From contig JAHFRL010000007.1 in NCBI GenBank assembly GCA_023266235.1, forward strand, positions 15,007-79,006: 64,000 nucleotides of DNA, in the 5' to 3' direction. The translations under genes and the position numbers were made by a program. Below the pieces are notes generated by a model. That model saw only the letters and a list, made by a program, of their open reading frames with translations. It was not told the origin of the DNA and did not search any database. This document shows, in pieces, positions 18,383-51,788 of the stretch (positions are counted from its first letter, which is position 1; every line of letters begins with the position of its first letter). The DNA is from Betaproteobacteria bacterium (GTDB lineage Bacteria > Pseudomonadota > Gammaproteobacteria > Burkholderiales > SG8-41).

Positions 18383-18455
18383 GGCGGCTCATCCCCTCAT
18401 CTGGCGCTCATACCAAAAACTGCTGTGACAAATCCCATGTCAATCTGCCGGCTGC

Positions 18456-19220: not shown

Positions 19221-19231
19221 CGTCTTGGTCG

Positions 19232-21490: not shown

Positions 21491-21737
21491 CCCGCCTCCT
21501 GTAGTGCTGCCGGCTACCCGGCGCGACAAGAGCCGGTTCGGGCCGATAATGGGGCAAGTCCTGTGCCAGACACGGGGCAGCCCGCGTCAGGCATAACCGC
21601 ACCGTGGACGCCTGGCGCTGCACGGCAGGCTTGACCGGCGCTGGGGACGCGCTGTGACGCCGGCCATGAAATCATTTTGATCGATGATTGAACAGGAATT
21701 GTGGCCGGCAGGCTCTGCCCGGACGGAGCGCTACGCC

Positions 21738-22475: not shown

Positions 22476-22496
22476 GGCAGTATCCCTGTAACCGTA

Positions 22497-23327
22497 TTAT
22501 CTGAACCAAGCCTTGAATTTGGCAAACCAGCCCGTCGGCGCCCCGAAGTCTTCAAGCACCCGCACCAGGATCACTGAAATGTTGTCGCGCCCGCCGCTGT
22601 CGTTGGCCTGCTGCACCAGCTGCTTTGCCGCCAGCGGCAGGTTCGCCTGCAGCGTGGCCAAGGTGGCGTGGATCTCATCATCCACGACCATATCGCTCAA
22701 CCCGTCCGAGCATAGCAGGTATATATCCCCCGGCTCCACATCATAGGTGTGAACTTCGGTCTCGACCTCGGGATCGATGCCGACCGCGCGCGTCACCAGA
22801 TTCTTGTTCTGCGAGTGGCGCGCCTGCTCTTTGCTTATCATGCCGCTGTCGATTTGTTCCTGCAACAGCGAGTGGTCGCGCGTGATCTGCTCGAACTCAT
22901 CCTGGCGCAGCCGATACAGGCGCGAGTCGCCAATGTGGCCGGTCGTCATGCGGTTGTCGTAAAACAACGCCACTACCAGGGTGGTGCCCATGCCCGCGTA
23001 TTGCGGCTGGCTTTGGGCGGCCTGATAAATCGCGGCATTGGCTTTGGCCGAATTCTCCTTGATCAGCTTGACTGCCAGCGGCTCGCCCGCAGAGCCGTTG
23101 ATTTCGTGCGGCTCGTGTGCTTCGAGCGCCCGCCTCATTTCGGCAGTCAGCATGGCCACCGCGATGCCGCTCGCGACTTCACCCGCATTGTAGCCGCCCA
23201 TGCCGTCGGCAAGCACCGCCAGGCCGATTTCGGCATCAGTTGCAATGCTGTCCTCGTTATGCGAGCGCACCATTCCGGGATCAGTGGCGGTTACAACTTC
23301 AAGCACGGTGCCGAGATTAGCCATCAT
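22497..23327 (-). CDS. PP2C-family Ser/Thr protein phosphatase
   Basis: MVRSHNEDS, LADGMGGYNAGEVAS and GGRDNISVILV. It starts 5 nt after the kinase stop. Confidence 0.9.
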   Translation of the reverse strand: MMANLGTVLEVVTATDPGMVRSHNEDSIATDAEIGLAVLADGMGGYNAGEVASGIAVAMLTAEMRRALEAHEPHEINGSAGEPLAVKLIKENSAKANAAIYQAAQSQPQYAGMGTTLVVALFYDNRMTTGHIGDSRLYRLRQDEFEQITRDHSLLQEQIDSGMISKEQARHSQNKNLVTRAVGIDPEVETEVHTYDVEPGDIYLLCSDGLSDMVVDDEIHATLATLQANLPLAAKQLVQQANDSGGRDNISVILVRVLEDFGAPTGWFAKFKAWFR

Positions 23328-23332
23328 GGTGA

Positions 23333-26238: not shown

Positions 26239-27171
26239 TCAGCCGCCGAGCACGCTGCCAGCCTTGATGCCGCCTGCCTGCGCCAGCTCCCCGCCGCTCA
26301 CCTTTTTGCCATCCCCGAACCTGGCCTTCAGCACTTCGATCAAGCCGCCTTGGGCCGTGATCTTGAAGCTTTGCGCCGTGACGTCAGTGACCTCGCCGAT
26401 CTTCCCGGGCACGTCCGCAAAACGCCGGAAAACGGCCTTGCGCGCGTCAAAAAGCTGTAACTTTTTGCCGCTGAGCGTCGTCCATGCGCCCGGCGCCGGG
26501 TTGCACCCCCGGATCAGGTTGTAGACATGGTCGATGGGCTTGGCCCAGTCTATCCGCGCCTCCCCGGCGCGGCACCAGCCCTCGTAACTCGCCTGCGACT
26601 CATCCTGCACCGTCTCCCGGTGTTTTCCCTTTAACACGAGATCGGCGGCCTCAAGCATGGCCTGTACGCCCAGCGGGAACAGGCGCTCGAAATAGACGGT
26701 GCCCAGCGTGTCGTCGGGGCTGATGGGCGTCTTCTTCTGCAGGATCACTGCGCCTTCATCCAGCCCGTCCGAGGGACGGAAAATGGTCAGGCCCGTCTCC
26801 GTGTCGCCTTTGATGATCGGCCAGTTGATCGAACTCGGGCCGCGATACTTCGGCAGCAGTGACGGGTGATACTGGATGGTGCCGTGTTTGGGTATGTTGA
26901 CGAATTCCTGCGGTGCGAACTGCAGCACGAAAGCCATGATGCCGATGTCGGCGTTAGCGTCCTGCATGGCCTGCGCCGCTTCCCGCGCCCGTAGCGACTT
27001 GAACTGGTGAACCTGCAGCCCCGTTTCCTGCGCCGCGAGACGCAACGCATCCGGCCGCGCGCCTTCCTTCTCGGGCGCGCAGAACACGGCTGCAACCTCG
27101 TCGCCGCGCGCGAGGAAGGCCTCGAACACGGCCTTGCCGTAGTCCTGCTGGCCGATGATTGCGATTTTCAT
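26239..27171 (-). CDS. stand-alone formyltransferase resembling the N-terminal (hydrolase/formyl-transfer) domain of 10-formyltetrahydrofolate dehydrogenase
   Basis: At 310 aa it matches the length I remember for that domain. MKIAIIGQQDYGKAVFEAFLARGDEVAAVFCAPEK, IQYHPSLLPKYRGPSSINW and SDGLDEGAVILQK align by eye to the ALDH1L1 N-terminal domain as I remember it (MKIAVIGQS..G..V.....GHEVVGVFT.PDK; YHPSLLPRHRGASAINW; DDGLDTGDLLLQK). A C-terminal Fmt-like subdomain is present. Confidence 0.75.
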   Translation of the reverse strand: MKIAIIGQQDYGKAVFEAFLARGDEVAAVFCAPEKEGARPDALRLAAQETGLQVHQFKSLRAREAAQAMQDANADIGIMAFVLQFAPQEFVNIPKHGTIQYHPSLLPKYRGPSSINWPIIKGDTETGLTIFRPSDGLDEGAVILQKKTPISPDDTLGTVYFERLFPLGVQAMLEAADLVLKGKHRETVQDESQASYEGWCRAGEARIDWAKPIDHVYNLIRGCNPAPGAWTTLSGKKLQLFDARKAVFRRFADVPGKIGEVTDVTAQSFKITAQGGLIEVLKARFGDGKKVSGGELAQAGGIKAGSVLGG

Positions 27172-27257: not shown

Positions 27258-28529
27258 CTACGCGGCCTTCTTCGGCGGCGCGGAAAACGCGCCCGCGTTC
27301 CTCAACTTGACGATCTGCTCGTCGGCGTAGCCAAGCACCTCCCTGAGGATCTCGTCAGTGTGCTCGCCGAGGAGCGGGGAGCGCTCGATCCTGGCCGGCG
27401 AATCCGAAAGCTTGATCGGCATACCCACGTTCCACCATTTGCCGCGCTGCGGGTGGTCGAGTTCGACATACATCTCGCGCAGCCTGACGTGCTCGTCGTT
27501 GGCGAGGTCTTCCGTGGACATGATGGGGCCGCAAGGCACGTTGATCTCATTGAGAATGCCCATCAACTCGCGCTTGCCATGCTTCAGCGCAAACTCGCCG
27601 ATAATCTCCCACATGTCATTCTGGTATCTGCGACGGTTATCGATGGTGGCGAACTTCGGATCGGTCGCCAGATCGGGCAGGCCGAGCTCGGGCCCGATGC
27701 GCCTGGCAAGCGCGTCCCACACGGCTTCCTGGACAACGACGTAGATAAAATCGTTGGTCCCCCCCGGATTGCAGCGGATGGCATTGCCCAACTGGCCGCC
27801 ACCGGAGTCATTGCCGGCGCGCGGCACCGCCCCCATGCCCTGATGCGTGGCCACTGAGTATTCCGCCAGCGACTCGCGGATAAGACGCTGGTGATCGCGC
27901 CACTTGACCCGGCACAGGTTCATGATGCCGTCCATCATGGCGACCTCGACGTATTGCCCCTCGCCGGTGCGGTCGCGCTGGCGCAGCGCGGCGAGTAGCC
28001 CGATCGCCAGGTGAAGACCCGTTCCGGTATCTCCGATCTGCGCGCCAGCCACGAAAGGCGGACCGTCGGGAACACCAGTGGTGCTCATCGCGCCGCCCAT
28101 CGCCTGGGCCACGTTTTCATAGGCCTTGAAGTTGGCATAAGGTCCCGAAGACCCGAAGCCCTTGATGGAACCCATCACGATGCGCGGGTTGATTTCGTGC
28201 ACTTTCTCCCAGGCAAATCCGAAACGGTCGAGCACCCCGGGACCGAAGTTTTCCATGACGATGTCGCATTTCTTCAGCAGCTCGACGAACACGGCCTTGC
28301 CATCGGGCGACTTCATGTTGACCGTGATCGAGCGCTTGTTGCAATTGAGCATCGTAAAATAAAGGCTGTCCGCATTCGGCACGTCGCGCAGCTGGCCGCG
28401 CGTCGCATCGCCGACGGGCGGCTCCAGCTTGATCACGTCCGCCCCCATCCACGCGAGCAGTTGCGAGCAGGTTGGCCCCGCCTGCACGTGCGTCATGTCG
28501 AGTATTCGAATTCCTTTGAGTGCTTCCAT
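27258..28529 (-). CDS. frc: formyl-CoA:oxalate CoA-transferase (type III CoA-transferase)
   Basis: MEALKGIRILDMTHVQAGPTCSQLLAWMGADVIKLEPP, LYFTMLNCNKRSI and KAYENVAQAMGGAMSTTG align closely to E. coli YfdW / O. formigenes Frc as I remember them. ATG 28529 has GGAGA 5 nt upstream. Confidence 0.9.
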   Translation of the reverse strand: MEALKGIRILDMTHVQAGPTCSQLLAWMGADVIKLEPPVGDATRGQLRDVPNADSLYFTMLNCNKRSITVNMKSPDGKAVFVELLKKCDIVMENFGPGVLDRFGFAWEKVHEINPRIVMGSIKGFGSSGPYANFKAYENVAQAMGGAMSTTGVPDGPPFVAGAQIGDTGTGLHLAIGLLAALRQRDRTGEGQYVEVAMMDGIMNLCRVKWRDHQRLIRESLAEYSVATHQGMGAVPRAGNDSGGGQLGNAIRCNPGGTNDFIYVVVQEAVWDALARRIGPELGLPDLATDPKFATIDNRRRYQNDMWEIIGEFALKHGKRELMGILNEINVPCGPIMSTEDLANDEHVRLREMYVELDHPQRGKWWNVGMPIKLSDSPARIERSPLLGEHTDEILREVLGYADEQIVKLRNAGAFSAPPKKAA

Positions 28530-28590
28530 TCTGATCTCCAAAAATGCTTCGGCAGATAGATGGCTACCTGCTCTCGCTCAACTGTTTGAC

Positions 28591-30318
28591 TTATTTCTTT
28601 TTTGCGCTTTGCGGATTCAGGCTCGTGATGCGACCGCTTTCGGTGCCGGCGCTTTCATCGATCACGGCATTGATGAGCGTGGGCTTGCGCGAGCGGATGG
28701 CTTCTTCCATGGCCTTGCGCAGCTCCGCCGGGGTCGTGGCGTGCACGCCCACGCCACCGAAGGCTTCCATGAGCTTTTCATAGCGTGCATCCTTGACGAA
28801 CACCAAGGGTGCCGGATCGCGGCCACCGGTCGGATTGACTTCGTCGCCGCGGTAGACGCCGTTGTTGTTCAAGATCACCACGCAGACCGGCAGGTTGTAG
28901 CGGCAGATGGTCTCGACTTCCATGCCGGAGAAGCCGAAGGCGCTGTCGCCCTCGATCGCGATCACCGGCAGGCGGCTGACCACGGCGGCCGCGACGGCAA
29001 AGCCCATGCCGATGCCCATCACGCCCCAGGTGCCGACGTCCAGGCGCTTGCGCGGCTTGTACATGTCGACGATGCTGCGGGTGAAGTCGAGCGCGTTGGC
29101 GCCTTCGTTGACCAGGATGGCGTCCGGGTTGGCCTTGACGATGTCGCGCACCACGTTCAGCGCGCTGTGAAAATTCATCGGCGTCGGATTCTTGGCCAGG
29201 GTCTCGGCCATCTTGGCAACGTTCTTGTTCTTGCGCTCGGCGATGGCGTTCAGCCAGTCCGCCGGCGGCTTGGCCCAGTTGGAGCCGATGCCGGCAAGCA
29301 GCGCGGACACGCAGGAACAGATGTCGCCGACCACCGGGGCGTCGATGCGGACGTTGCTGTCCGCCTCCTGCGGCGAGATGTCGATCTGGATGAACTTCTG
29401 GCCGCCCCACGCCTTGGCGTCCTTGCCGCCCCAAGTCTTGCCCTTGCCATGCGAGAGCAGCCAGTTCAGGCGGGCGCCGACCAGCATCACCACGTCAGCC
29501 TCGGGCAGCACATAGGAGCGCGCGGCGGCAGCGGACTGCTCGTGCGTGTCCGGCAGCAGGCCCTTGGCCATGGCCATGGGCAGGTAGGGGATGCCGGTCT
29601 TCTCGACCAGGGCGCGAATGTCCGCGTCCGCCTGGGCGTAAGCGGCACCCTTGCCCAGCACGATGAGCGGACGCTTGGCGCTCTTGAGCAGCTCGAGCGC
29701 GCGCTGCACCGCATCTTGGGCCGGGATCTGGCGCGGCGCCGGATCGACCACCTTGATCAGCGACTTCTTGCCCGCTTCTGCATCCATGGTCTGCGGGAAG
29801 AGCTTGGCCGGCAGGTCGAGGTAGACGCCGCCCGGGCGGCCGGAGACGGCGGCACGGATGGCGCGCGCGATGCCCACGCCGATGTCCTCGGCGTGCAGCA
29901 CGCGGAAGCCGGCCTTGCACAGCGGCTTGGCGATGGCCAACTGGTCCATCTCCTCGTAGTCACCCTGCTGCAGGTCGACGATCTCGCGCTCGCTGGAGCC
30001 GCTGATGAGGATCATCGGGAAGCAGTTGGTGGTGGCGTTGGCCAGTGCGGTCAGGCCGTTGAGGAAGCCGGGCGCGGACACCGTCAGGCAGATGCCCGGC
30101 TTTTGCGTCATGAAGCCGGCGATGGCGGCGGCATTGCCGGCGTTCTGCTCATGGCGGAACGAAATCACGCGCATGCCTGCGGCCTGTGCCTTGCGGGCAA
30201 AGTCGGTGATCGGGATACCGGGCAGACCGAAGATCGTGTCGATGCCGTTGAGTTTGAGGGCATCGATGACCAGGTGAAAGCCGTCGGTCACTTCTTGTGA
30301 TTGTGCATCGGTTGTCAT
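28591..30318 (-). CDS. oxc: oxalyl-CoA decarboxylase (ThDP-dependent)
   Basis: [52 protein letters not shown] and the ThDP motif region [22 protein letters not shown]...NNNG. It sits directly upstream of frc. Confidence 0.9.
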
Positions 30319-30417
30319 GCTGAGATGCCTCGCGTTCTCGCCGTCGTATCCATCGAAATCTCCTAGTGAGAGAAGTTTTTCGTTCCGCCCGGAATGACGC
30401 TTTTTTGAAGGGTTTCA

Positions 30418-30459
30418 AATATATACAGCCGGCTGCGACCCGGCCTTGACCACGGTCAA
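30418..30459 (-). promoter_or_regulatory. FNR/FixK-type box plus -10 element, candidate class II promoter of oxc
   Basis: Read on the minus strand: TTGACcgtgGTCAA (30459-30446), 22 nt, then TATATT (30423-30418). The box centre falls about 41.5 nt before the implied TSS near 30411. The same box sits over the -35 region of the divergent regulator gene (TATACT at 30475-30480). Confidence 0.6.
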
Positions 30460-30465
30460 TTTTTC

Positions 30466-31155
30466 ATGTTTTGGTATACTGGTGTTTGCATGCCCTGCCT
30501 TGCCGCAGTGCCTGAAACAGCGCTGTTTCACAAACCGATGACATCCCTCGCCCGCCACGCGGAGGCCAAGATCGTGCGGCTGCAACTGCGCCAGAACCTG
30601 GTGCTGCGGCACATGACGCGCGAGCAATGGGACGAGCTCGAGCCGCAGCTCGACATCACCGATTACGCGAAGGGAGCGCTGCTCGAAAACCAGGGCGATT
30701 CGTCGATGCGGCAGTATTTCATCCTCGACGGCATACTCAAGCGCGTGGTATCGAACCGGGAGGGCCGCGAAATGATCCTGCGCTTCGCCGCCGAAACCGA
30801 GATCGACACCAGTTACGCCGCGTGGCGCCTCAAAACCACCATCCCATACTCGATCCGCGCGGTAACGCGCGTGCGCACCGCGCAGTTGTCGATGGAAGAG
30901 TGGGTCGCGTTCGTGGAACGCCATCCAGCGGTCAAGAGCCAGTTCGAGTTCGGGGTAATGAAACTGATGAGCGAGGTGATGGCGCATACCATCACGCTGC
31001 ACCTGCTCGATGCGCCCGGCCGCATCGCGCGCTTCATGCGCAAGCACTCAGCGCTGGTCGAGCGCCTGCCGAAAAAAGAGCTTGCCTCCTACCTCAACCT
31101 GTCGCCGGAAACCCTGTCGCGCCTCAAGCGCCGCGGCAAAATCGACCTGCAATAA
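30466..31155 (+). CDS. Crp/Fnr-family transcriptional regulator (FNR-like DNA-recognition helix, no FNR cysteine cluster evident)
   Basis: The cNMP-binding-like fold has ALLENQGDSSMRQYFILDGILKRVVSNREGREMIL. The C-terminal HTH is LASYLNLSPETLSRLKRRG, which contains the E--SR motif that FNR uses to read TTGAT half-sites. The start is uncertain: ATG 30466, 30490 or 30538, none with a good SD. Confidence 0.8.
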   Translation: MFWYTGVCMPCLAAVPETALFHKPMTSLARHAEAKIVRLQLRQNLVLRHMTREQWDELEPQLDITDYAKGALLENQGDSSMRQYFILDGILKRVVSNREGREMILRFAAETEIDTSYAAWRLKTTIPYSIRAVTRVRTAQLSMEEWVAFVERHPAVKSQFEFGVMKLMSEVMAHTITLHLLDAPGRIARFMRKHSALVERLPKKELASYLNLSPETLSRLKRRGKIDLQ

Positions 31156-31245: not shown

Positions 31246-32256
31246 CTATCCTTGGGCGAACGGAATCACGCCTGGGACAAGCCATTTCTCCCACATCTCG
31301 TCAATCTTCGCCTGGAAGTACGCGATATCTTCCTCGGTAAAGTGCGCAAAACGCCCCTGCCTCATCAAATACTCGCCAACGGGCTTGCGCTTGACCGCTC
31401 CACTCGCGATATGCTTGCTCTTGCCGTACATCTTCACCTTGCGGTCTTCGACCTCGTAGAGGGGCCAGATGCCGGTCTCGATCGCAAGCTCACCCAGCTC
31501 ATGGGAGAATTTCGGATCGTAGTCCCAGCCCTTGGGGCAAGGATCGAGCGAGTGAATGAACGTCGGCCCGCCGATGGTCAACGCCCGGCGCACCTTGTTC
31601 ATCGTGTCGATGGCGTTCCCGGCGCAAACGGTCGCGACATACCTGCAGTCGGGATGGCCCGCAGCCAACATCGCCGCGGTGTTCTTTTTCCAGCGTTTGT
31701 GCATGATGCGGTGCTTCTTGCCCGGCGGACTAAAAGTGGAGTTCGCACCGTACGGAGACGAACCCGACACCTGGATGTCGGTGTTGGCATACGACTCGTT
31801 GTCGTACATGAAGATCAACATGTTGTACTCGGTGTGCTGCAGGGCCGCCGAAATGGCCGACAGCCCCATGTCGGCGCCGCCGCCATCACCGCAAAAGGCG
31901 ATGACGTTGATCGGCTCCTCCTCCATCTTGCCCTTGCGCATCATCGCCTTCAGAGCGGCGGCGGTACCAGTGGCAGCGGAGCCTGCGGATCCGAGCTGCG
32001 TGTGCATCCATGGCACCACCCACGGGGTGGAGTAATAGGTGGTGTTGGCCACATACATGCAGCCGGTGGCGCCAAGGACGATCGTGCGCGGCCCGGCCGC
32101 CTTGATCATGAGCTTCATGACCAGCGCCGACTCACACCCCTGGCAGGTGCGGTGACCCGAGGTGAAATACTCCTCGCGAGCGACCTTCTTGATGCCCTTC
32201 CAGGGTTCGAGAACCTGGGTTGAGAAATCCTTCAAAGCTATGCTTGATGTTTCCAT
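31246..32256 (-). CDS. 2-oxoacid:ferredoxin oxidoreductase beta subunit (ThDP-binding), OOR-like complex
   Basis: GHRTCQGCESALVMKL (proximal cluster cysteines) and FCGDGGGADMGLSAI...NESYANT (ThDP GDG...N motif). It starts 5 nt after the alpha stop. Confidence 0.85.
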   Translation of the reverse strand: METSSIALKDFSTQVLEPWKGIKKVAREEYFTSGHRTCQGCESALVMKLMIKAAGPRTIVLGATGCMYVANTTYYSTPWVVPWMHTQLGSAGSAATGTAAALKAMMRKGKMEEEPINVIAFCGDGGGADMGLSAISAALQHTEYNMLIFMYDNESYANTDIQVSGSSPYGANSTFSPPGKKHRIMHKRWKKNTAAMLAAGHPDCRYVATVCAGNAIDTMNKVRRALTIGGPTFIHSLDPCPKGWDYDPKFSHELGELAIETGIWPLYEVEDRKVKMYGKSKHIASGAVKRKPVGEYLMRQGRFAHFTEEDIAYFQAKIDEMWEKWLVPGVIPFAQG

Positions 32257-32261
32257 GATGG

Positions 32262-33518
32262 TTACTCCCGCACGCCGATCCAGTGGGTATCTCGATAGTC
32301 GATGTCGCCGCCGCTTGCGGCGGCAAACACCTTGCCGGTTATTTCAATGACGTTATTGGTGCTCAACTCGCGTCCACCCAAACCGGCGATGAATGAAACG
32401 ATCGTGGGCCGGTGCACCGCTGGGTAGAGGGCGGAGCGCAGCTCGTTGGCTAGCACGCCGCTGAAGAAGGTGGAGCCGAAACTGTAATCGCGATCGATCA
32501 CGCCTACCGCCTTTACCCCGGATAGCGCGTCCTGCAGCTCGATGGTGGGGAACGGGCGGAACCACCTGACACGGACGAAGCCGACCTTCTTGCCCTGCTC
32601 CCGCATCTTGCGGACGGCGACTTTCACCGGCATTGCGAGCGTGCCCATTCCCACCAGGGCAACCTCGGCGTCCTCCATCATGTAGCGCTCGATGAAGGGC
32701 TCGCCGCCGCGTCCGAACTTGGCGTTGAAATCACCGTAAGCTTCGATGAGGACATCACGGGCACGGCGCGCCGCCATGTCATTTTGTTTGCGTATCTCCA
32801 TCACCCAATCCTCGTTCGCCTGGGGGGCGATGGTGATCGGGTTGTTTGGATGCAACTGCTTATCTCCCCGGTCATAGCGCGGCAGGAAGCTGTTGACCAG
32901 CTCCTGGCTGGGAACGTCGACGATCGACTGTGAGTGGGTGAGGAACGCACCGTCGCAGCTGATCGCACAGGGAAGAGAGACGCGCTTGTCTTCGGCCACG
33001 CGGTAGGCGATCAGCGCCGTGTCGAACGCCTCTTGCGCGGTCGACACCCAGGTTAGCAACCAGCCGAGATCCCGCACCGCGAGCGCATCGTTGTGCTCGA
33101 CCCCGAAGGCGCCGGGATCGTCGAGTGCCCTGTTGCCGACCATGGCAACCATCGGCAGACGCAGCCCGGCGGTGACCGCCAGCGCCTCAAAGGCGTAGAA
33201 CCAACCGACGCCACTGGAGCCACAGAAAACCCGTGCCCCTACGGCCGACGCGTGCTTCACAATCTCGAACTGCGAGTGCTCGCTCTCGGCTACCATGTAT
33301 TCGCAGTCGAAGTCGCCGTCGGCGATCATCTTCGATACGTACTGCATAACGGTGTCGTAGGGCCGGATCGGGTACGCCGTGATCACGTCGACGTCGGCGA
33401 GTCGAACTGCATGCGCGACCGCTTCACTGCCGCTGATCAGCTCCTGCGACCCACGCCCCGGTGCGCGGGCGGTCGTGACATCAACTTTTTTGGCAACAAC
33501 TCCTTCAGGAGGATTCAT
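32262..33518 (-). CDS. 2-oxoacid:ferredoxin oxidoreductase alpha subunit, OOR-like
   Basis: ELISGSEAVAHAVRLADVDVITAYPIRPYD, where Arg replaces the usual Thr of YPITP, and VGNRALDDPGAFGVEHND. ATG 33518 overlaps the upstream gene by 14 nt. Confidence 0.85.
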   Translation of the reverse strand: MNPPEGVVAKKVDVTTARAPGRGSQELISGSEAVAHAVRLADVDVITAYPIRPYDTVMQYVSKMIADGDFDCEYMVAESEHSQFEIVKHASAVGARVFCGSSGVGWFYAFEALAVTAGLRLPMVAMVGNRALDDPGAFGVEHNDALAVRDLGWLLTWVSTAQEAFDTALIAYRVAEDKRVSLPCAISCDGAFLTHSQSIVDVPSQELVNSFLPRYDRGDKQLHPNNPITIAPQANEDWVMEIRKQNDMAARRARDVLIEAYGDFNAKFGRGGEPFIERYMMEDAEVALVGMGTLAMPVKVAVRKMREQGKKVGFVRVRWFRPFPTIELQDALSGVKAVGVIDRDYSFGSTFFSGVLANELRSALYPAVHRPTIVSFIAGLGGRELSTNNVIEITGKVFAAASGGDIDYRDTHWIGVRE

Positions 33519-34647
33519 TGGCTATCTCCCCGGCATATTGGCCCACGTGGTGAAATCCATGGCTACGGGGGGGCGGTTCCGAAATCTTTTCCGACAACCA
33601 CGCAGCGTAGCTTTTCTTGTCCTTGGTCCACATCTCCCATTGGCTCCCGTTATCCTTGAAGGCTTCCTCGTTAACCATGGTGATGCACTTGTCTACCGGG
33701 CAGACGGCCTCGCACACGCCACAGCCACAGCAGGCTTCCATGTTGGCGTCGTAGTGGCCGTCGGGCGTGATGTCGAAGCAGGTATCCGGGCACTGTAGCC
33801 AACAGATTTTGCACTCGGTGCAGGTGTCGAAGTTGACCACCGGCCGCATGGTGCGCGTTGAGAATTTCTTGAAAGTGGGGTTGCGTGCGGGGACATAGCC
33901 GCCATCCCGGCCGGGAACCTTTTGCTCCCCGGTCATGCCGCGAATCACCAGGCCCTCTTCCATCGTCTTCCAGCCTGGCAAGTCAAACTTGTAGGGGACC
34001 GTAGCGTTGCCATTATCAGCGCCAATCGCGGTCGACGCGACCAGAGCGTAGGCCTTCCTCGCCGAAGCTTCCTTTGCGGCGTTCTTCTTCGGCTCGTTAA
34101 TCGCCGCCACGACGGATTCCAGGCTGACGATGTGCGGGGCGACCTTGGCCAGCGCCCCCAGCAGGCGCACATCGGTGTGATCGTCCTTGTAGACCCACAA
34201 CCCCGAGAAGCTGGCGGCGGCCTTGACGATGGCGAGATTGTAGGGCTTGCCCTTGCGATGGATGTCGCCGATCAGGCTCTCCGACGAACGCGTCGATGGA
34301 ACCAACAGCGTGCCGCCCTCTTTGAGCAGCTTGTTGATAGGCTGCAAGCCATACCAAGCCCAGGACTCGACACCTTTGCAGAGGGTGTCGTCAGCGGCAA
34401 TGGTCACGTCGTTGTTGTCGGGCTCGTACCTCGACAGGTTCTCCTCCATCTCTTCTTCGCTATCGGCAACGACGGCGAACTGCTTGGCCGGGATGCCGTT
34501 GCGTTCAGGAGAATCGCTGTAGCGGCCGAAGGCGATACCGATCTTCCCTTCCTTTTTTGCAGCAAAGACAATCCCGCGGCAGATGTTCTTGGCCAAACTC
34601 TTCTGAAAAATGCCGCGGTAGACGACCTCCACGGAACCGGTGCTCAT
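33505..34647 (-). CDS. 2-oxoacid:ferredoxin oxidoreductase gamma subunit fused to a 2x[4Fe-4S] ferredoxin (delta) domain
   Basis: ATG 34647 (MSTGSVEVVYRGIFQKSLAKNI) is preceded by AGGAGG. The C-terminus has CTECKICWLQCPDTC and CCGCGVCEAVCPVDKC. The longer track ORF (to 34836) would overlap the FprA-like gene. Confidence 0.8.
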   Translation of the reverse strand: MSTGSVEVVYRGIFQKSLAKNICRGIVFAAKKEGKIGIAFGRYSDSPERNGIPAKQFAVVADSEEEMEENLSRYEPDNNDVTIAADDTLCKGVESWAWYGLQPINKLLKEGGTLLVPSTRSSESLIGDIHRKGKPYNLAIVKAAASFSGLWVYKDDHTDVRLLGALAKVAPHIVSLESVVAAINEPKKNAAKEASARKAYALVASTAIGADNGNATVPYKFDLPGWKTMEEGLVIRGMTGEQKVPGRDGGYVPARNPTFKKFSTRTMRPVVNFDTCTECKICWLQCPDTCFDITPDGHYDANMEACCGCGVCEAVCPVDKCITMVNEEAFKDNGSQWEMWTKDKKSYAAWLSEKISEPPPRSHGFHHVGQYAGEIANESS

Positions 34648-34822
34648 TGCACATACCTCCTGGTGGCCTTGCGATGGGAAATAACAGCATATCATGTCGG
34701 AATTCTTCCGGGCAAATGCCAGCTGTCCGCCGCAACCGTATTTATACCCGGGACTTTTCGACACTGCGGCGGGGGCATCTGCAGCCACCGGGGACGGTGC
34801 AATACCCATCACGTTCGCGTGT

Positions 34823-36205
34823 CTATTCAGAGTCAACGATTACCTTCAGCATCCCTTCCACCGAGGTGAACTTCTCCCTCGGTTTGCCGGCGGCTGCGCC
34901 GCGCCGCACCTCCGCCGCATCGATCTTCTGCCAGTCCGCGTAGCTCACCACGCGGACCGTGCGGTTTTGCAACAAAGCCGTCAGTCCGCCAGCACCGCTT
35001 TTCGCGCCGGCGGGAAGATGCGGCAAGTCGGCCAGCAGTGACGCCACCGTGGCTACGCTATCGGCGCGATTGGTGCCGATGATTCCCGTCGGACCACGCT
35101 TGATCCAGCCCGTCACATATAGACCCGGAACGACGTTCTGCCCATCGATTATGCGACCGTCCTGGTTGGGAATGACACCGCGACGATCATCGAAAGGAAC
35201 GCCTGGAATGGCAGCACCCCGATAGCCGATGCTGCGAAACAGCACGCCGCATGCAAGCTCCTCTACCTCGCCAGTCTCGCGTGCGACCTGCTGCGAAGGC
35301 TCCCCCTCCAGACAATTTCGCACCAGCACCACTCGTTCAAGCCTTCCTTCGCCTTTGAGTGCCTTCGGGCTCTTGAGGAACTGGATGTGGCAGCGCCGGT
35401 GCCGCGTGGGCGCCGGCCGGGCGGCGAACGCCTGCAGTACTTCATAGCTCTTGCTACTGGCCCTGTTGTGTCTGTCCGCGAGCTCTTCACGGCTCGCCGG
35501 ATTCAGCTCGAGATCGTCCGCCACCAAGATTGGGTCGCAGTCCGCCAATTCCCCCAGCTCCCTGAGTTCCTGATGAGTGAACTTCGCTTGCGCCGGACCG
35601 CGGCGTCCAATCATATAAACATCGCGAATCCTGCTCTGCGCCAAGACCTCGAGCGCGTGGCCGGCGATGTCCGTGTGCCTGAGCTCGTCCACCGTCTTGC
35701 AGAGAATCCGGCAGACATCGACAGCCACATTCCCTTGTCCGATGACCACGGCGGTCTCATGCGACAGGTCGAACACCAGATCGCGATAGTCAGGGTGGCC
35801 GTTGTACCACCCGACAAACTCCGTAGCCGCATGGCTGCCTGCCAGATGCTCCCCCGGGATGCCGAGCTTCCGGTCGGTCTCCGCGCCACAAGCAAATATG
35901 ACGGCGTGGTAGCAACCCTTCAGTTCCTCCACGCTGATATCGCGCCCCACCGTGACGTTGCCCAAGAATCGAAATTGCGGGGACTCGGCAATCTGCTGAT
36001 AGACACGTATGGGTTCCTTGAGCTTCGGGTGATCCGGAGCTACGCCGCTGCGCACCAGCCCAAAGGGCGAGGCAAGGCGTTCAAACATGTCGACAAGGAC
36101 CGTTTGTTTCGATTCGAGCAACGCCTCGGCGGCGTAAAAGCCGCTCGGTCCACTGCCGACAATTGCCGCGCGCAGCGGGTTCTGCGCCGTGCCGAGGTTA
36201 CTCAT
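34823..36205 (-). CDS. FprA / adrenodoxin-reductase-type NADPH:ferredoxin oxidoreductase
   Basis: AIVGSGPSGFYAAEALL, GLVRSGVAPDHPKLK, VIGQGNVAVDVCRIL and GWIKRGPTGIIGTN align along their length to M. tuberculosis FprA as I remember it. Confidence 0.85.
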   Translation of the reverse strand: MSNLGTAQNPLRAAIVGSGPSGFYAAEALLESKQTVLVDMFERLASPFGLVRSGVAPDHPKLKEPIRVYQQIAESPQFRFLGNVTVGRDISVEELKGCYHAVIFACGAETDRKLGIPGEHLAGSHAATEFVGWYNGHPDYRDLVFDLSHETAVVIGQGNVAVDVCRILCKTVDELRHTDIAGHALEVLAQSRIRDVYMIGRRGPAQAKFTHQELRELGELADCDPILVADDLELNPASREELADRHNRASSKSYEVLQAFAARPAPTRHRRCHIQFLKSPKALKGEGRLERVVLVRNCLEGEPSQQVARETGEVEELACGVLFRSIGYRGAAIPGVPFDDRRGVIPNQDGRIIDGQNVVPGLYVTGWIKRGPTGIIGTNRADSVATVASLLADLPHLPAGAKSGAGGLTALLQNRTVRVVSYADWQKIDAAEVRRGAAAGKPREKFTSVEGMLKVIVDSE

Positions 36206-36264
36206 GCTGGGCGGTTTCCCGTACCGGGAAGGCCATGGAACCGCAAAGCCCGAGGCGAGTTGCC

Positions 36265-36570
36265 CTACTCAAACCCTAATTGCTTTTTCCGCTCTTCTGC
36301 GCCTGGAAGCGGATCTTGTTTCTTGCGTATCACCGGCAGTCGGGGTGCGCGTTCGGCATTGATTTCAATCCAGCGCTGCTTTTCCTCCGGGATCGGGTCC
36401 TCGCAAATCGCTTCGACCGGACACAGGGGTATGCAGGCACCGCAATCGATGCATACTTCCGGGTCGATATAAAGCATCTCGTCGTCGCCATGAAAACAGG
36501 CAACCGGACATACCGTGACACAGTCGGTGAAACGGCAGCGTTTACAATTATCGGTTACGACGGTCGTCAT
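36265..36570 (-). CDS. fdxA: 7Fe-type ferredoxin (FdxA/Azotobacter FdI-like)
   Basis: MTTVVTDNCKRCRFTDCVTVCPVACFHGDDEMLYIDPEVCIDCGACIPLCPVEAI. ATG 36570 is preceded by GGGAGG. Confidence 0.85.
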   Translation of the reverse strand: MTTVVTDNCKRCRFTDCVTVCPVACFHGDDEMLYIDPEVCIDCGACIPLCPVEAICEDPIPEEKQRWIEINAERAPRLPVIRKKQDPLPGAEERKKQLGFE

Positions 36571-36610: not shown

Positions 36611-38104
36611 CTATACTCCGCGCAGCTTGGCAATTGCCATCGAGATCAGCGGCCAGAACAACAGCACCAGCGCCAGCGCGGTGATGCTGCCGACCAGCCG
36701 GTTCGAAAAGAAAATCGCCATGTCGCCCTGCGCCATCAGCATCGACTGGCGGAACGAATCCTCGGCGCGGTCGCCGAGCACCAAGGCCAGCACCAGCGGC
36801 GCCAGCGGGTAATCGAGCTTCTTGAACACGTAACCGACCACGCCGAACATCAGCATGTACCAGATGTCGAGCATCGCACTGTGCACGGTGTAAGCGCCGA
36901 TCGCGCAAATCACGATGATGATCGGCGCGATGATCGAGAACGGCACGCGCAGGATCGCGGCGAACAGCGGCACGCAGGTGAGCACGATGATGAGGCCGGC
37001 GATGTTGCCGAGGTACATGCTCGCGATCAGGCCCCACACGAAATCCTTCTGCTCAACGAACAGCAGCGGACCCGGCTGCAGGCCCCAGATCAAAAGCCCC
37101 CCGAGCAGCACCGCCGCGGTCGGCGAACCGGGGATGCCGAGCGCGAGCATCGGCAACAAGGCGGAAGTGCCGGCGGCGTGCGCGGCGGTTTCCGGCGCCA
37201 CCACGCCTTCGAGCTGACCGCTGCCGAACTTGTCGCCGTCGCGTGACATGCGCTTGGCGATGCCGTAGCTCATGAACGACGCCGGCGTCGCGCCACCCGG
37301 CGTGATCCCCATCCAGCAGCCGATCAGGCAGCTGCGCAACGAAGTCAGCCAGTACTGCGGCAGCTTTTTCCACGTTTCCAGTACGACCTTGGGATTGATG
37401 GTGGCGGTCTTGCCGGTGAACGACAACCCTTCTTCCATCGTCAGCAGGATCTCGCCGATGCCGAACAGACCGATCACCGCGATCAGGAAATCGAAGCCGC
37501 GCATCAGGTCGGTGAAACCGAAAATCAGCCGCAACTGGCCGGTGACGGTGTCCATGCCGACCGCGGCGAGCGCAAAACCGAGCATCATCGCCGCGAGCGT
37601 CTTGAACGGAGAGCCCTTGCCCATGCCGATGAAGCTGCAGAACGTGAGCAAGTAGACCGAGAAGAATTCGGGCGGCCCGAACTGCAGCGCGAATTTGGCG
37701 ACCAGCGGTGCGAGAAAGGTGATCATCACCACCGCGACTAACGCACCGATGAATGAAGAGGTGAACGCGCCGGTCAGCGCTTCGCCGGCGCGCCCCTGCT
37801 GCGCCATCGGATAGCCGTCGAAGGTGGTCGCGACAGACCACGGCTCGCCCGGAATGTTGAACAGCACCGAGGTGATCGCGCCGCCGAACAGCGCGCCCCA
37901 GTAGATGCACGACAGCATGATAATCGCCGAAGTCGGCGGCATCGTGAACGTGAGCGGCAGCAGGATCGCGACGCCGTTGGCGCCGCCGAGACCGGGCAGC
38001 ACGCCGATGATCACGCCGAGCACGATGCCGATCATCATCAACATCAGGTTGAACGGCGTCAGCACCACCGCAAACCCGTGAAATAATGCGTTGACTTCTT
38101 CCAA
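36611..38104 (-). CDS. tctA: tripartite tricarboxylate transporter, large permease TctA
   Basis: 497 aa and polytopic. FHGFAVVLTPFNLMLMMIGIVLGVIIGVLPGLGG is typical of a TctA N-terminus. TTG start at 38104. Confidence 0.85.
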   Translation of the reverse strand: MEEVNALFHGFAVVLTPFNLMLMMIGIVLGVIIGVLPGLGGANGVAILLPLTFTMPPTSAIIMLSCIYWGALFGGAITSVLFNIPGEPWSVATTFDGYPMAQQGRAGEALTGAFTSSFIGALVAVVMITFLAPLVAKFALQFGPPEFFSVYLLTFCSFIGMGKGSPFKTLAAMMLGFALAAVGMDTVTGQLRLIFGFTDLMRGFDFLIAVIGLFGIGEILLTMEEGLSFTGKTATINPKVVLETWKKLPQYWLTSLRSCLIGCWMGITPGGATPASFMSYGIAKRMSRDGDKFGSGQLEGVVAPETAAHAAGTSALLPMLALGIPGSPTAAVLLGGLLIWGLQPGPLLFVEQKDFVWGLIASMYLGNIAGLIIVLTCVPLFAAILRVPFSIIAPIIIVICAIGAYTVHSAMLDIWYMLMFGVVGYVFKKLDYPLAPLVLALVLGDRAEDSFRQSMLMAQGDMAIFFSNRLVGSITALALVLLFWPLISMAIAKLRGV

Positions 38105-38146: not shown

Positions 38147-38668
38147 TCAATAACCGAGGAAGCGCAGCGGCTCGAGGGAGCCTTTGAACAGCGGCACCTT
38201 GAACCACACTTCGAACATCAGGAACAAACTGACATTGACGGACAAACCGACGGCAACGCTTTTGAACCACGTGTACTTGCCGAGCCATACCATGAACACG
38301 GTGATATAGATCGCGGAGGCGACGTACAGGCCCACATACTGCACGCCGATCACGTAGACCGCCGCCGGGATCAGCACCGTCAGCACCAGCTTGAACGGCC
38401 CCCAAGTGACGAACAATTCGCCATCCTCGGGTTTGGTCAATATCGCCTGCGCCAGGGTCACCAGGCTTGCAATGCAGATCAGAACACCGATGTAGAACGG
38501 AAAGTACCCCGACTGCGGGCCGTCGCTGCCCCATTTCGAGCCCAGCCGGTAGCTGTCGAACGCCACGATCGCGCCCAAGGCAAATACCAGCAATGCAACG
38601 ATGATATCCGCCGTGCGCATCGAGATTCCGGCGCGATCACCGGCGCCGGATTGCTGATTTTCATCCAT
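38147..38668 (-). CDS. tctB: tripartite tricarboxylate transporter, small permease TctB
   Basis: 173 aa with four predicted TM segments, located between tctC and tctA. Confidence 0.75.
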   Translation of the reverse strand: MDENQQSGAGDRAGISMRTADIIVALLVFALGAIVAFDSYRLGSKWGSDGPQSGYFPFYIGVLICIASLVTLAQAILTKPEDGELFVTWGPFKLVLTVLIPAAVYVIGVQYVGLYVASAIYITVFMVWLGKYTWFKSVAVGLSVNVSLFLMFEVWFKVPLFKGSLEPLRFLGY

Positions 38669-38767: not shown

Positions 38768-39790
38768 TTATGGTTTGGCCAGGAACCCCGCTTCACGCAT
38801 CAATTCGCGGTGGGTGTTTTCGGCTTTCTCGACCCACTTCGCATATTCGGCGCCGCTCATGAAGGTGGTGTTGAACGCGCCGTCTTCCATGAACTTCTTC
38901 CATTCCGGGGTCTCGCGCACTTTCTTGAACAGGCCCACGTAATAATCGACCTGTTCCTTGGTCACGCCGCCGGACATGAAAATGCCGCGCAGCATCACAT
39001 AATCCATCGGCACCCCGGATTCTTTGCAGGTCGGAATGTCGTACCACGACATGGTGTCGGTGACCTTGTTCTTGTACGGCATGCGCGTGTCGTCAAACAC
39101 GCACAGCGGCCGCAGCTTGCCGGCACGCCACTGCGCCACCGCCTCGATCGGATTGTTGACAGTCGAGTCGACATGCTTGCCGACGAGCTGCACCGCGACG
39201 TCGCCGCCGCCCTTGAACGGCACATAGATAAACTTCACGCCGACGGCTTTCTCGATCGCGACGGTTATGATCTGGTCTTCCTGCTTCGAGCCGGTGCCGG
39301 CCATCTTGAACTTGTTGGGTCCGCCCGCCTTCACCGCGTCGAGATACTCCTTCGCGCTCTTGTACGGCGTTTCGGCATTGACCCACAACACGAACTGGTC
39401 GAGCGCCAGCATCGCCACCGGCGTCAGGTCCTTCCAGTTGAACGGCACGCCGGTTGCCAGCGGCGTGGTGAACAGGTTGGAAAGCGTGATGATGATTTTA
39501 TGCGGTTCGCCTTTCGATTCCTTGACGGCGAGAAAGCCTTCCGCGCCCGCGCCGCCTGATTTGTTGACCACGATCAGGGGCTGTTTCATCAGGTTGTTCT
39601 TGGAAATCACGCCCTGCAGCAAACGCGCCATCTGGTCGGCGCCGCCGCCGGTGCCGGCAGGGACCACGAACTCGACCGGCTTGGTCGGTTCCCAGTCGGC
39701 GGCGGACGCCGCTGGAACCGCCACGGCAAAAGCTCCCGCGCTCAGCGCGCATAGCGTGCGACGCAGCATCAATGCTGAATAATTATACAT
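38768..39790 (-). CDS. tctC: tripartite tricarboxylate transporter substrate-binding protein (TctC/Bug family)
   Basis: Signal peptide, then KPVEFVVPAGTGGGADQMAR. ATG 39790 has AGGAGG upstream. Confidence 0.85.
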   Translation of the reverse strand: MYNYSALMLRRTLCALSAGAFAVAVPAASAADWEPTKPVEFVVPAGTGGGADQMARLLQGVISKNNLMKQPLIVVNKSGGAGAEGFLAVKESKGEPHKIIITLSNLFTTPLATGVPFNWKDLTPVAMLALDQFVLWVNAETPYKSAKEYLDAVKAGGPNKFKMAGTGSKQEDQIITVAIEKAVGVKFIYVPFKGGGDVAVQLVGKHVDSTVNNPIEAVAQWRAGKLRPLCVFDDTRMPYKNKVTDTMSWYDIPTCKESGVPMDYVMLRGIFMSGGVTKEQVDYYVGLFKKVRETPEWKKFMEDGAFNTTFMSGAEYAKWVEKAENTHRELMREAGFLAKP

Positions 39791-39867: not shown

Positions 39868-39909
39868 ATCATCCGAAAATCAGCGGCAAAAAACATTGAC
39901 CACAATCAA
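39868..39909 (-). promoter_or_regulatory. FNR/FixK-type box plus weak -10, candidate promoter of the tctCBA-fdxA-fpr-OFOR gene string
   Basis: The minus strand reads TTGATtgtgGTCAA (39909-39896), 22 nt, then GATGAT (39873-39868). TGATAA or GATAAC are alternatives 2-3 nt further on. The spacing is the same as at oxc, fhs and sucC. Confidence 0.45.
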
Positions 39910-41282: not shown

Positions 41283-42959
41283 TTAAAACAGCCCGACCAC
41301 CCTGCCCTCGTCGTCGAGGTCGATTTTCTCCGCCGACGGCACCTTGGGGAGTCCCGGCATGGTCATGATGTCGCCGCACACCATGACGACGAATTCCGCG
41401 CCGGCGGCGAGCCGCACTTCGCGCACGTTGATCACGTGGCCGGACGGCGCGGCGCGCAGCTGCGGGTCGGTCGAGAACGAGTACTGTGTCTTGGCGACGC
41501 ACACCGGGTAGTGCCCGTAGCCGTCGTCCTGCAGCTTCCTGATCTGCGCGCGCACCTTGGCGTCGGCGGTCACGTCGGACGCACCGTAGATCTTGGTCGC
41601 GATGGTCTTGATCTTGTCCCACAGCGGCAGCGCGTCTTCGTAGACATACTTGAAATTGGACGGCACCTTCTCGACCAGATCGACCACGGTGCGCGCCACT
41701 TCCTCCGCACCCTTGCCACCGTCGGCCCAGTGCGTCGCCAGAATCACTGGCGCTTCGTGGTGCGCCATTTTTCTCTTGAGCAGCTCGATCTCGGCGGGGG
41801 TGTCGAAGTTGAAACGGTTGATCGAAACCACGCACGGCAGTCCATAGTGGTTGCGTATGTTGTTGACGTGGCGCTCGAGATTGGTAATGCCCTTTTCCAG
41901 CGCCGCGAGGTTCTCCTTGTTGACCTCCTTGAGGTCGACCCCGCCGTGGTATTTGAGCGCGCGCCCCGTCGCCACGATCACCACCGCCGACGGCCGCAGT
42001 CCCGACTTGCGGCATTTGATGTCGATGAACTTCTCGGCGCCGAGATCGGCGCCAAAGCCGGCCTCGGTCACCACGTAATCGGCGAGTTTCAACGCGGTCC
42101 TGGTCGCGATCACCGAATTGCAGCCGTGCGCGATATTGGCGAACGGGCCGCCGTGGATGAACGCCGGATTGTTCTCGAGCGTCTGCACCAGGTTCGGCTG
42201 CAGCGCGTCCTTCAGCAGCACCGTCATCGCGCCATGCACTTTGAGGTCTTTTGCCAGCACCGGTTTCTGGTCGCGCGTGTAGCCGACGACGATGTTGCCG
42301 AGGCGATTCTTCAGATCCTTGAGCGAAGTCGCGAGGCAGAAAATCGCCATCACTTCGGAGGCGACCACGATGTCAAAACCGTCCTGGCGCGGGTAGCCGT
42401 TGCCGGGGCCGCCGAGCGCCACCGTGATATCGCGCAGCGCGCGGTCGTTCATGTCCATCACGCGCTTCCAGGCGATGCGCCGCACGTCGACGCCGAGCGC
42501 GTTGCCGTGGTGGATGTGATTGTCGATTGCCGCCGCGAGCAGATTGTTGGCGAGGCCGATCGCGCTGAAGTCGCCGGTGAAATGCAGGTTGATGTCTTCC
42601 ATCGGCACCACCTGCGCATAGCCGCCGCCGGCGGCGCCGCCCTTCATGCCGAACACCGGCCCGAGGCTCGGCTCGCGCAGGCAGATGATCGCTTTCTTGC
42701 CGATCCTGTTGAGCGCGTCCCCCAGGCCGACCGTGGTCGTGGTCTTGCCTTCGCCTGCCGGCGTCGGTGTGATCGCCGTCACCAGGATCAGCTTGCCGTC
42801 GGGCTTGTCCCCGAGGCTGTCAACGTAGTCGAGCGCCACTTTGGCTTTGTAACGGCCGTAGGGTATGAGGTGCTCTTCGGGAATGCCGAGCTTTTCGGCG
42901 ATCTGGGTGATGCGCTGCATTTTCGCAGCTTGCGCGATTTCAATATCCGATAACGCCAT
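41283..42959 (-). CDS. fhs: formate--tetrahydrofolate ligase
   Basis: [26 protein letters not shown] and [15 protein letters not shown], with full-length similarity to Fhs/FtfL. Confidence 0.95.
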
Positions 42960-43037: not shown

Positions 43038-43079
43038 AATATAGGCCGCGGCCGGGGCCGCGGCCTTGACCGCAGTCAA
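43038..43079 (-). promoter_or_regulatory. FNR/FixK-type box plus -10 element, candidate class II promoter of fhs
   Basis: The minus strand reads TTGACtgcgGTCAA (43079-43066), a 22-nt spacer (the GC palindrome GGCCGCGGCCCCGGCCGCGGCC), then TATATT (43043-43038). The box centre is about 41.5 nt from the implied TSS. Confidence 0.6.
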
Positions 43080-49908: not shown

Positions 49909-50012
49909 GACTTGACCCCTAAAGCTTCACCGCAAAGGACGCAAAGTGCGCGAAGGTTCGCAAAGGAATCCCATTTCAAGAATTTCTTGGGCGTCTTGGC
50001 GGCTCAAGCTTT

Positions 50013-51686
<1,674 letters not shown>

Positions 51687-51788
51687 GCTCCTCTGGGCTT
51701 CGATTGCGGGTGTTGCGAAACAACGTGCGTGATCGAAACCAATTGCGCCTATCGTACGGGCGCAAATCAAATTGCCCGGTGCTGCCGG

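Follow-up and report, generated by a model that had tools for sequence, protein, structure and literature searches.

The window analyzed here, a stretch of 64,000 nucleotides from betaproteobacterial contig JAHFRL010000007.1, carries on its minus strand three adjacent genes for a 2-oxoacid:ferredoxin oxidoreductase (OFOR). They encode a gamma/delta fusion (33505-34647; 380 aa from its ATG) that combines domain III with the 2x[4Fe-4S] domain V, an alpha subunit (32262-33518; 418 aa) comprising domains I and II, and a beta subunit (31246-32256; 336 aa) comprising domain VI, with thiamine pyrophosphate (TPP) and the proximal [4Fe-4S] cluster. On the same strand lie genes for an FprA/adrenodoxin-reductase-type NADPH:ferredoxin reductase (34823-36205; 460 aa) and a 7Fe ([3Fe-4S][4Fe-4S]) FdxA-type ferredoxin (36265-36570; 101 aa). 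The strand and coordinates of these five open reading frames match those of an earlier reading of this DNA (the original prediction), which proposed that the three OFOR genes encode an oxalate oxidoreductase (OOR) wired to its own ferredoxin and NADPH reductase. For the OFOR genes, public gene calls on identical metagenome contigs agree and reproduce the lengths of 380, 418, and 336 aa. Pfam assigns POR_N and PFOR_II to alpha, TPP_enzyme_C to beta, and a 4Fe-4S dicluster domain to gamma/delta, in which two CxxCxxCxxxCP motifs can be read directly. The gene order gamma/delta, alpha, beta is, as predicted, that of the Moorella OOR locus (L088). On balance, the sequences argue that the three genes specify a TPP- and [4Fe-4S]-dependent OFOR from a broadly distributed clade of its own, sister to Moorella OOR, and that this enzyme most likely works like OOR.

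Similarity to OOR and conservation of the active site

Among the NCBIfam models, the OOR equivalogs NF045791 (alpha), NF045792 (beta), and NF045790 (delta) gave the top score for each of the three subunits. Alpha scored 384.8 bits against OOR alpha, with PorA as the runner-up (346.2 bits); beta scored 349.9 bits against OOR beta, with PorB as the runner-up (297.2 bits); and gamma/delta scored 93.6 bits against OOR delta in a full-length alignment. In PDB, alpha matched 5c4i_A of OOR at 1.3e-97 and the alpha subunit of Methanosarcina pyruvate:ferredoxin oxidoreductase (PFOR) at 2.3e-67, and beta matched 5c4i_C at 1.7e-89 and PFOR beta at 7.8e-61. The sole match of domain III was 5c4i_B, also of OOR (4.7e-8); no PFOR gamma subunit was found even at E = 10. 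A search of a plasmid collection found no close relative, only PFOR-type matches at ~35% identity.

The alpha subunit contains AYPIRPYD (Arg52) and VGNRALDDPGAF (Arg130 and Phe138). HMMER aligns residue 26 of window alpha with residue 5 of 5c4i_A, which sets the offset at 21 and makes Arg52, Arg130, and Phe138 the counterparts of Arg31, Arg109, and Phe117 of OOR. The residue equivalences and the 21-residue extension given in the original prediction therefore hold. The roles of the OOR residues were taken from secondary sources: YPIRP has been described as unique to Moorella OOR (MtOOR), whose "bait-and-switch" mechanism is driven by Arg31 and Asp116 (PMC5020499), and the curated catalytic residues are Arg31 and Asp116 of alpha, Glu154 of gamma, and Asn143 of beta (PMC12654022). 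In a scan of genomes, a relative was recovered from 518 species genomes, and we examined the best 80 loci, in which alpha identity was 67 to 88%. YPIRP is present in all 80, VGNRALDDPGAFG is identical in every one of them, and both arginines for the distal carboxylate of oxalate (the equivalents of Arg31 and Arg109) are invariant in the clade. In a three-way comparison of alpha (75 window-type, 119 Moorella-type, and 83 other sequences), 15 positions proved common to both YPIRP clades and rare elsewhere (R31, Y33, M37, Q62, G79, V83, A88, D112, G115, F117, G118, E120, W136, Q211, and P252), and Phe117 was found to be specific to the OOR superclade. Asn143 of OOR beta is kept as Asn158 in window beta, although PFOR has Asn here too.

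The switch loop, however, reads NRALDDPGAF in the window and DRTLDPPGDF in Moorella, and Asp116 of OOR is Ala137 in window alpha, a point absent from the original prediction. With such a different loop, bait-and-switch cannot run exactly as in Moorella.

Domain III and the loss of the CoA loop

We take the CoA phosphate-binding loop of canonical gamma subunits to be the GGQG motif at the start of the Pfam POR domain. In the structure of MtPFOR with CoA, the cofactor is bound by the phosphate-binding loop of domain III (PMC8091585). The stretch equivalent to GGQG reads VVYRGIFQKSLA in the window, where it is conserved across the clade, and TVWARGVVMNKDA in MtOOR, so that the GGQG loop is absent from domain III of both enzymes. 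Loss of this loop in OOR and the window clade alike supports a reaction that would be independent of CoA.

The gamma/delta subunit also has additions that are conserved in the clade and missing from MtOOR. These are an ESWAWYGLQ insertion in domain III (residues ~94-102), a linker of 26 residues that joins domain III to domain V (~237-262), and a C-terminal tail of ~48 residues (~333-380; SQWEMW...RSHGF..GQYA). As a speculation, such additions might shield the clusters from oxygen.

Phylogeny, distribution, and annotation

Alpha representatives were taken as one per 50%-identity cluster from ~15 billion proteins, and full-length matches were aligned with MtOOR and MaPFOR. Among these representatives, the Arg form of the motif is confined to the window clade (P0121, P0133, and P0136; loop NRALDDPGAF), the intermediate type P0127 (NRALDDPGNF), the Moorella clade (P0129, P0175, P0192, and P0235; loop DRTLDPPGDF), and P0246, which carries the variant LPIRP; all remaining representatives have YPITP or a similar sequence. 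Neighbor joining with 100 bootstraps gave support of 92 for the YPIRP core clade, 100 for the window clade, 99 for the window clade together with P0127, and 100 for the Moorella clade. The window clade is thus a separate sister branch of the characterized OOR, apart from the PFOR and 2-oxoisovalerate:ferredoxin oxidoreductase (VOR) representatives. In agreement with the original prediction, alpha joins OOR (92/100) and not the KOR, VOR, or PFOR clades.

Members of the window clade occur in at least 80 species-level genomes, nearly all of them metagenome-assembled, from Gamma-, Beta-, and Alphaproteobacteria, Acidobacteriota, Dehalococcoidia, Methylomirabilota, Armatimonadota, Nitrospinota, and other groups. 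The enzyme had been taken for a proteobacterial version of OOR, a description that is too narrow for a clade found across many phyla. The window is itself metagenomic, and one protein in the 90% cluster of its gamma/delta subunit is labeled Betaproteobacteria. In one Terriglobia genome (L075), a second OFOR alpha/beta pair (2813-5025, minus strand), 43 to 44% identical to that of the window, lies a few kilobases from the window-clade copy.

In NCBI and JGI, proteins of the clade go under the names "pyruvate ferredoxin oxidoreductase" or "(4Fe-4S)-binding protein"; the label "oxalate oxidoreductase" is found in the Moorella-type clade, in Moorella, Thermovenabulum, Clostridium, Acetomicrobium, Caldinitratiruptor, and others. 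As publicly annotated, the window enzyme would be an ordinary PFOR or VOR, in line with PorA and PorB being the second-best NCBIfam matches. We considered this assignment and rejected it as having very little probability. The window alpha has YPIRP in place of YPITP and is set apart from the PFOR and VOR representatives with 92% bootstrap support, domain III has neither a GGQG loop nor a Pfam POR match, and alpha and beta score far under the PorA and PorB cut-offs (550 and 405 bits).

Gene neighborhoods of related loci

Gene neighborhoods were compared by tblastn of the window proteins against the 80 loci and by de novo clustering of flanking open reading frames. The order gamma/delta-alpha-beta is constant wherever a contig spans all three genes. 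A GntR/FCD regulator is encoded directly 5' of gamma/delta in 44 loci, and in 17 loci, mostly of Acidobacteriota, a major facilitator superfamily (MFS) carrier is encoded directly 3' of beta. This carrier falls in the oxalate/formate antiporter equivalog (526 bits; cut-off, 335), and the acidobacterial protein is 38% identical (7e-88) to the carrier encoded 3' of the Clostridium OOR operon. TctCBA adjoins the OFOR genes in 19 of the 80 loci, and frc-like genes lie near them in ~13. The Moorella OOR locus consists of genes for a GntR/FCD regulator, an AAA ATPase, gamma/delta, alpha, and beta, followed by a lactate-permease-family carrier, and the Clostridium OOR locus consists of genes for a GntR/FCD regulator, gamma, delta, alpha, and beta, followed by an MFS carrier. 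A module of regulator, enzyme, and oxalate-type importer is therefore common to the characterized and the new clade, and this is the strongest evidence, albeit indirect, that the substrate is oxalate. One Moorella-clade representative, P0129, lies on a contig of just 2 kb, which gives no gene context.

Several further features of these loci were observed. A CDC48-like double-AAA ATPase is encoded directly 5' of the OOR operon in Moorella (L088, 3670-5871) and Caldinitratiruptor (L090, 3810-6002); neither the window nor the clustered flanks of the new clade contain it. In L082 to L084, the loci of P0094, the GntR-gamma/delta-alpha-beta module adjoins a ribosomal protein/rpoB cluster on long contigs, and in L082 and L083 a catalase gene and several transposases are also nearby. 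Beside an Frc-like CoA transferase, another TPP enzyme takes the place of true Oxc in L011 (10959-12653), L014 (5581-7218), L017 (2722-4362), L052, and L059; its best models are acetolactate-synthase-like and 2-hydroxyacyl-CoA-lyase-like, and it is ~25% identical to Oxc.

A proposed ferredoxin and FprA electron chain

The FprA-like protein matches Mycobacterium tuberculosis FprA (1lqt; 2.9e-116, residues 10-455) and bovine adrenodoxin reductase (1cjc; 2.5e-115). The ferredoxin matches Azotobacter vinelandii 7Fe FdI (5e-28; ~1e-27 for 1frk and 1axq) with all seven cluster cysteines aligned, shows the pattern CxxCxxxxCxxxCP ... CxxCxxCxxxCP, and has an FdI-like C-terminal domain (DUF3470 match); on the NCBIfam model FdxA_Protbact it scores 114 bits, under the cut-off of 135. 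The identities proposed for both proteins are borne out by these PDB matches, and the pair accompanies the enzyme beyond the window. It adjoins the OFOR genes, on the same strand, in 12 of the 80 loci, all proteobacterial. It lies 5' of them in L002, L004, L006, L007, L009, L010, and L017 and in L008 (only FprA visible at the contig end), and 3' of them in L015, L018, and L019 and in L025 (only the ferredoxin visible at the contig end). Since the pair is upstream in some loci and downstream in others, its linkage to OFOR has outlived rearrangement.

The ferredoxin and FprA genes might nevertheless be mere neighbors that do not serve the OFOR, for example, a general NADPH/ferredoxin module. Roughly one in two of the proteobacterial loci with sufficient flanking sequence lack the pair, as do all nonproteobacterial loci, and in the window a gap of 175 bp separates fprA from the gamma/delta gene. 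We regard such a chance association as improbable, both because of the persistent adjacency despite switching between the upstream and downstream positions and because the neighborhood encodes no other user of ferredoxin, for example, a P450.

The best-known activity of FprA enzymes is electron transfer from NADPH to ferredoxin, which would suit an OFOR working in the reductive direction, with electrons passing from NADPH through FprA to ferredoxin and the OFOR carboxylating a C1 unit for assimilation (for instance, formyl-CoA plus CO2 to glyoxylate). Frc, a formate-tetrahydrofolate ligase (FTHFS), and a formyltransferase, all encoded at the locus, handle formyl units. Reductive operation has, however, scarcely any likelihood. 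NADPH is, by established thermodynamics, much too weak a reductant for 2-oxoacid synthesis; CoA-dependent carboxylation is at odds with the loss of the CoA loop; and acidobacterial loci contain regulator, enzyme, and importer only. Oxidation of oxalate gives low-potential electrons (PMC11045627), so that flow from ferredoxin to NADP+ would be thermodynamically favorable, and we infer that electrons move in this direction and form NADPH.

An oxalate/formate island and its regulation

At 928 bp from the end of the beta gene, in agreement with the ~0.9 kb originally estimated, lies the CoA-dependent oxalate pair oxc (28591-30318; NF006721, 1,023 bits; cut-off, 557) and frc (27258-28541; TIGR03253, 563.6 bits; cut-off, 504), both on the minus strand and both above the curated equivalog cut-offs. 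The 928-bp gap contains a gene for a Crp/Fnr-family regulator (30466-31155, plus strand; 221 aa in the public gene call) that is divergent from oxc and convergent with beta. It matches Pfam cNMP_binding (31.3 bits; cut-off, 27.5) and, weakly, HTH_Crp_2. A candidate open reading frame on the opposite strand, orf210 (30415-31047, minus), was rejected as an antisense shadow of this gene.

The original prediction placed the OFOR genes under an FNR-type switch. Of such a switch, a regulator of the Crp/Fnr family and boxes like those of FNR are indeed present; the FNR-type four-cysteine cluster, however, is absent from the regulator (221/229 residues), which has one or two cysteines only, at its extreme N terminus. 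Oxygen sensing is therefore unproven, and the regulator resembles FixK. The window contains 6 exact TTGA-N6-TCAA sites, where 0.56 would be expected, and 4 of the 6 are near-identical intergenic TTGACC-N4-TCAA boxes 5' of the oxc, tctC, FTHFS, and sucC-FDH operons. The first, TTGACCACGGTCAA (30446-30459), lies between oxc and the regulator gene. The second, TTGACCACAATCAA (39896-39909), lies 106 bp 5' of tctC and is a candidate operator for a tct-fdx-fprA-OFOR unit. The other two, both TTGACCGCAGTCAA, lie 107 bp 5' of the FTHFS gene (43066-43079) and 54 bp 5' of a sucC-like gene (54087-54100). Among the related loci, perfect TTGAT-N4-ATCAA boxes occur 79 to 115 bp 5' of gamma/delta in L015, L018, L019, and L025, against a background of 21 sites in 1.2 Mb. 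Given these boxes in the window and in its relatives, the OFOR genes appear to be part of one Crp/Fnr-type regulon that also takes in the CoA-dependent route for oxalate and the genes that oxidize and assimilate formate.

Upstream of the ferredoxin gene and on the same strand are tctA (36611-38104), tctB (38147-38668), and tctC (38768-39790), each with its Pfam match (TctA, TctB, and TctC), which together encode a tripartite tricarboxylate-type transporter. Because tctCBA, fdx, fprA, and the OFOR genes share a strand, are separated by short gaps, and have no predicted terminators between them, they are probably cotranscribed. A promoter and terminator scan found nothing above background around the OFOR genes; a strong terminator is predicted at 41278-41253, after the FTHFS gene (41283-42959, minus strand; NF010030, 927 bits; cut-off, 652). 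A tRNA scan of the window found none.

Directly 3' of frc is a gene for an Fmt-like formyltransferase (26239-27171, minus strand; Pfam Formyl_trans_N and Formyl_trans_C) that scores under the fmt cut-off. Fmt-like genes also adjoin frc-like and FTHFS genes, or lie within a few kilobases of them, in L014 (12349-13260), L017 (15879-16790), and L022 (18303-19211). The protein could shift formyl groups between formyl-CoA and folate. On the other side of the OFOR genes, a soluble NAD-type formate dehydrogenase (FDH), made up of an alpha subunit (47086-49908) and a fused NuoE/F-like subunit (50013-51770), appears in one operon with upstream sucC/sucD-like CoA ligase genes (51944-54033), the whole spanning 47086-54033 on the minus strand. 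As succinate-CoA ligase, the CoA ligase beta subunit reaches 594 bits; as malate-CoA ligase, it reaches 536 bits, under the cut-off of 604 for that model.

Farther from the OFOR genes, the minus strand carries a run of signaling genes (14326-25912) for GAF-HD, GAF-MshEN-T2SSE ATPase, and metallo-beta-lactamase/class II phosphodiesterase-like proteins, a CHASE2 adenylate/guanylate cyclase, an FHA protein, a PP2C phosphatase, and a CHASE2 Ser/Thr kinase. This cyclase is a possible source of the ligand for the regulator with the cNMP domain (30466-31155). Several long TPR-repeat proteins are encoded at 496-12034 (minus strand); one is fused to a GT41 (O-GlcNAc-transferase-like) domain (7390-9234), and another adjoins an FkbM methyltransferase-domain protein (3087-4718).

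Proposed function and its alternatives

If the window enzyme works like OOR, oxalate would be taken up by TctABC, or elsewhere in the clade by the oxalate/formate-type MFS carrier encoded 3' of beta. It would be seated between Arg52 (OOR Arg31) and Arg130 (OOR Arg109) and oxidized on TPP to two molecules of CO2, without CoA. Two low-potential electrons would pass along the three [4Fe-4S] clusters to the coencoded 7Fe ferredoxin, from which the FprA-type flavoprotein would move them to NADP+. The OFOR would run alongside the CoA-dependent frc/oxc route, whose formate would feed FDH and FTHFS.

Several observations weigh against this reading. The position of Asp116 is Ala in all 80 loci and Asp in at least 90% of the 119 Moorella-type sequences, and the window and Moorella clades have each fixed a different residue at 21 alpha positions, including D116 to A, P113 to D, D108 to N, and T34 to D. 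Alpha is 44% identical to MtOOR (35% to MaPFOR), and all three subunits miss the OOR equivalog cut-offs (384.8 against 500 bits for alpha, 349.9 against 590 for beta, and 93.6 against 230 for delta). The counterpart of Glu154 of OOR gamma, in a weakly aligned region, is His157 by HMMER or Asp155 by MAFFT, within a conserved KDDHTD motif. Pfam POR gives no match for window domain III, whereas MtOOR delta scores 53.6 bits from profile position 11, and an AlphaFold model of gamma/delta built on a 29-sequence alignment has a pLDDT of 47.3. At the level of gene content, a true oxc stands beside the enzyme in only one related locus (L023), and the oxalate/formate antiporter implies formate export, yet the OOR reaction makes no formate. 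The original assignment to OOR thus stands as far as the grouping of alpha with OOR, and not with PFOR, VOR, or KOR, is concerned; with the equivalog thresholds failed and Asp116 absent, calling the enzyme "an OOR" would be premature.

The same differences could mean that the window enzyme is an OFOR of the OOR superclade, CoA independent or CoA dependent, for another small 2-oxoacid (glyoxylate, oxamate, mesoxalate, or oxaloacetate), with the altered switch loop reflecting a change of substrate. Apart from the switch loop, the 21 divergent positions, and the missed cut-offs, this alternative draws on the several loci in which an acetolactate-synthase- or 2-hydroxyacyl-CoA-lyase-like TPP enzyme and an Frc-like CoA transferase stand in place of true Oxc, and MtOOR itself turns over some other 2-oxoacids. 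We consider it unlikely, though deserving of attention. Both arginines that grip the distal carboxylate of oxalate are invariant, the best family for the operon-linked transporter of 17 loci is the oxalate/formate antiporter, and true oxc and frc genes flank the OFOR genes in the window. We retain oxalate as the probable substrate of the window enzyme, as judged from motifs and gene context.

Taken to its full extent, the proposal is that the clade provides a true CoA-independent oxalate:ferredoxin oxidoreductase to bacteria of many phyla that live aerobically or microaerobically in soil, freshwater, and the sea, with a re-engineered switch loop in which the Asp has moved from position 116 to 113 or 34 and, in Proteobacteria, with NADPH formed through a dedicated 7Fe ferredoxin and FprA. 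We put this forward tentatively, as a possibility to be taken seriously.

Reviews to 2024-2026 in the searchable literature name no OOR characterized outside the strict anaerobe Moorella, and OOR is absent from a 2023 survey of oxalotrophy. The window clade is undescribed in the searchable literature, although the primary OOR papers might already mention such homologues. The clade, present in at least 80 species-level genomes, is mislabeled as PFOR and repeatedly stands next to oxalate transport genes. If the proposal is true, oxalate would also be oxidized outside strict anaerobes by a route that needs neither CoA nor ATP, and environmental oxalate turnover, as in soils and the oxalate-carbonate pathway, would be substantially undercounted by frc/oxc marker surveys. 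The link to ferredoxin and FprA suggests a direct route from oxalate to NADPH. Because the catalytic Asp116 is absent, the clade offers a natural experiment on the bait-and-switch mechanism, and it is a source of candidate OFORs from nonanaerobic hosts for CO2 and oxalate chemistry.

Comparison with known systems

The closest characterized system is Moorella OOR (EC 1.2.7.10; PDB 5c4i, 5exd, and 5exe). It shares with the window enzyme three subunits with domains III and V fused, the order gamma/delta-alpha-beta, and TPP plus three [4Fe-4S] clusters, together with Arg31, Arg109, Phe117, 12 further clade-specific alpha residues, and a domain III free of GGQG. Many members of the window clade also share its GntR/FCD regulator and an organic acid permease at the locus. 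The two differ in that Asp116, Pro113, Asp108, and Thr34 of the Moorella enzyme are Ala, Asp, Asn, and Asp in the window clade, in the 21-residue N-terminal extension of window alpha, and in that the hosts of the window clade are not acetogens.

PFOR of the PorABCD type (e.g., PDB 9bt4) resembles the window enzyme in fold family, cofactors, and the TPP and cluster motifs of beta, and its alpha subunit is ~35% identical. It differs in its YPITP motif, in its GGQG CoA loop, in having gamma and delta as separate subunits, and in depending on CoA for its reaction.

For the electron chain, the nearest parallels are M. tuberculosis FprA with its 7Fe ferredoxin and A. vinelandii FdI, the likeness lying in sequence matches and the FdI cysteine pattern. 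The known direction of M. tuberculosis FprA is from NADPH to ferredoxin, whereas that proposed here is from ferredoxin to NADP+. Other OFORs are tied to pyridine nucleotides, namely, the phenylglyoxylate:NAD+ oxidoreductase PadEFGHI and the 2-oxoglutarate:NADP+ oxidoreductase of Azoarcus, and PadG, PadI, and PadF are among the NCBIfam matches of the window proteins. These enzymes and the window system share an OFOR core and a flavoprotein that hands electrons to NAD(P)+, in the window by proposal. They act on other substrates and belong to another clade, and the window system differs from them in its free 7Fe ferredoxin and separate FprA-type enzyme.

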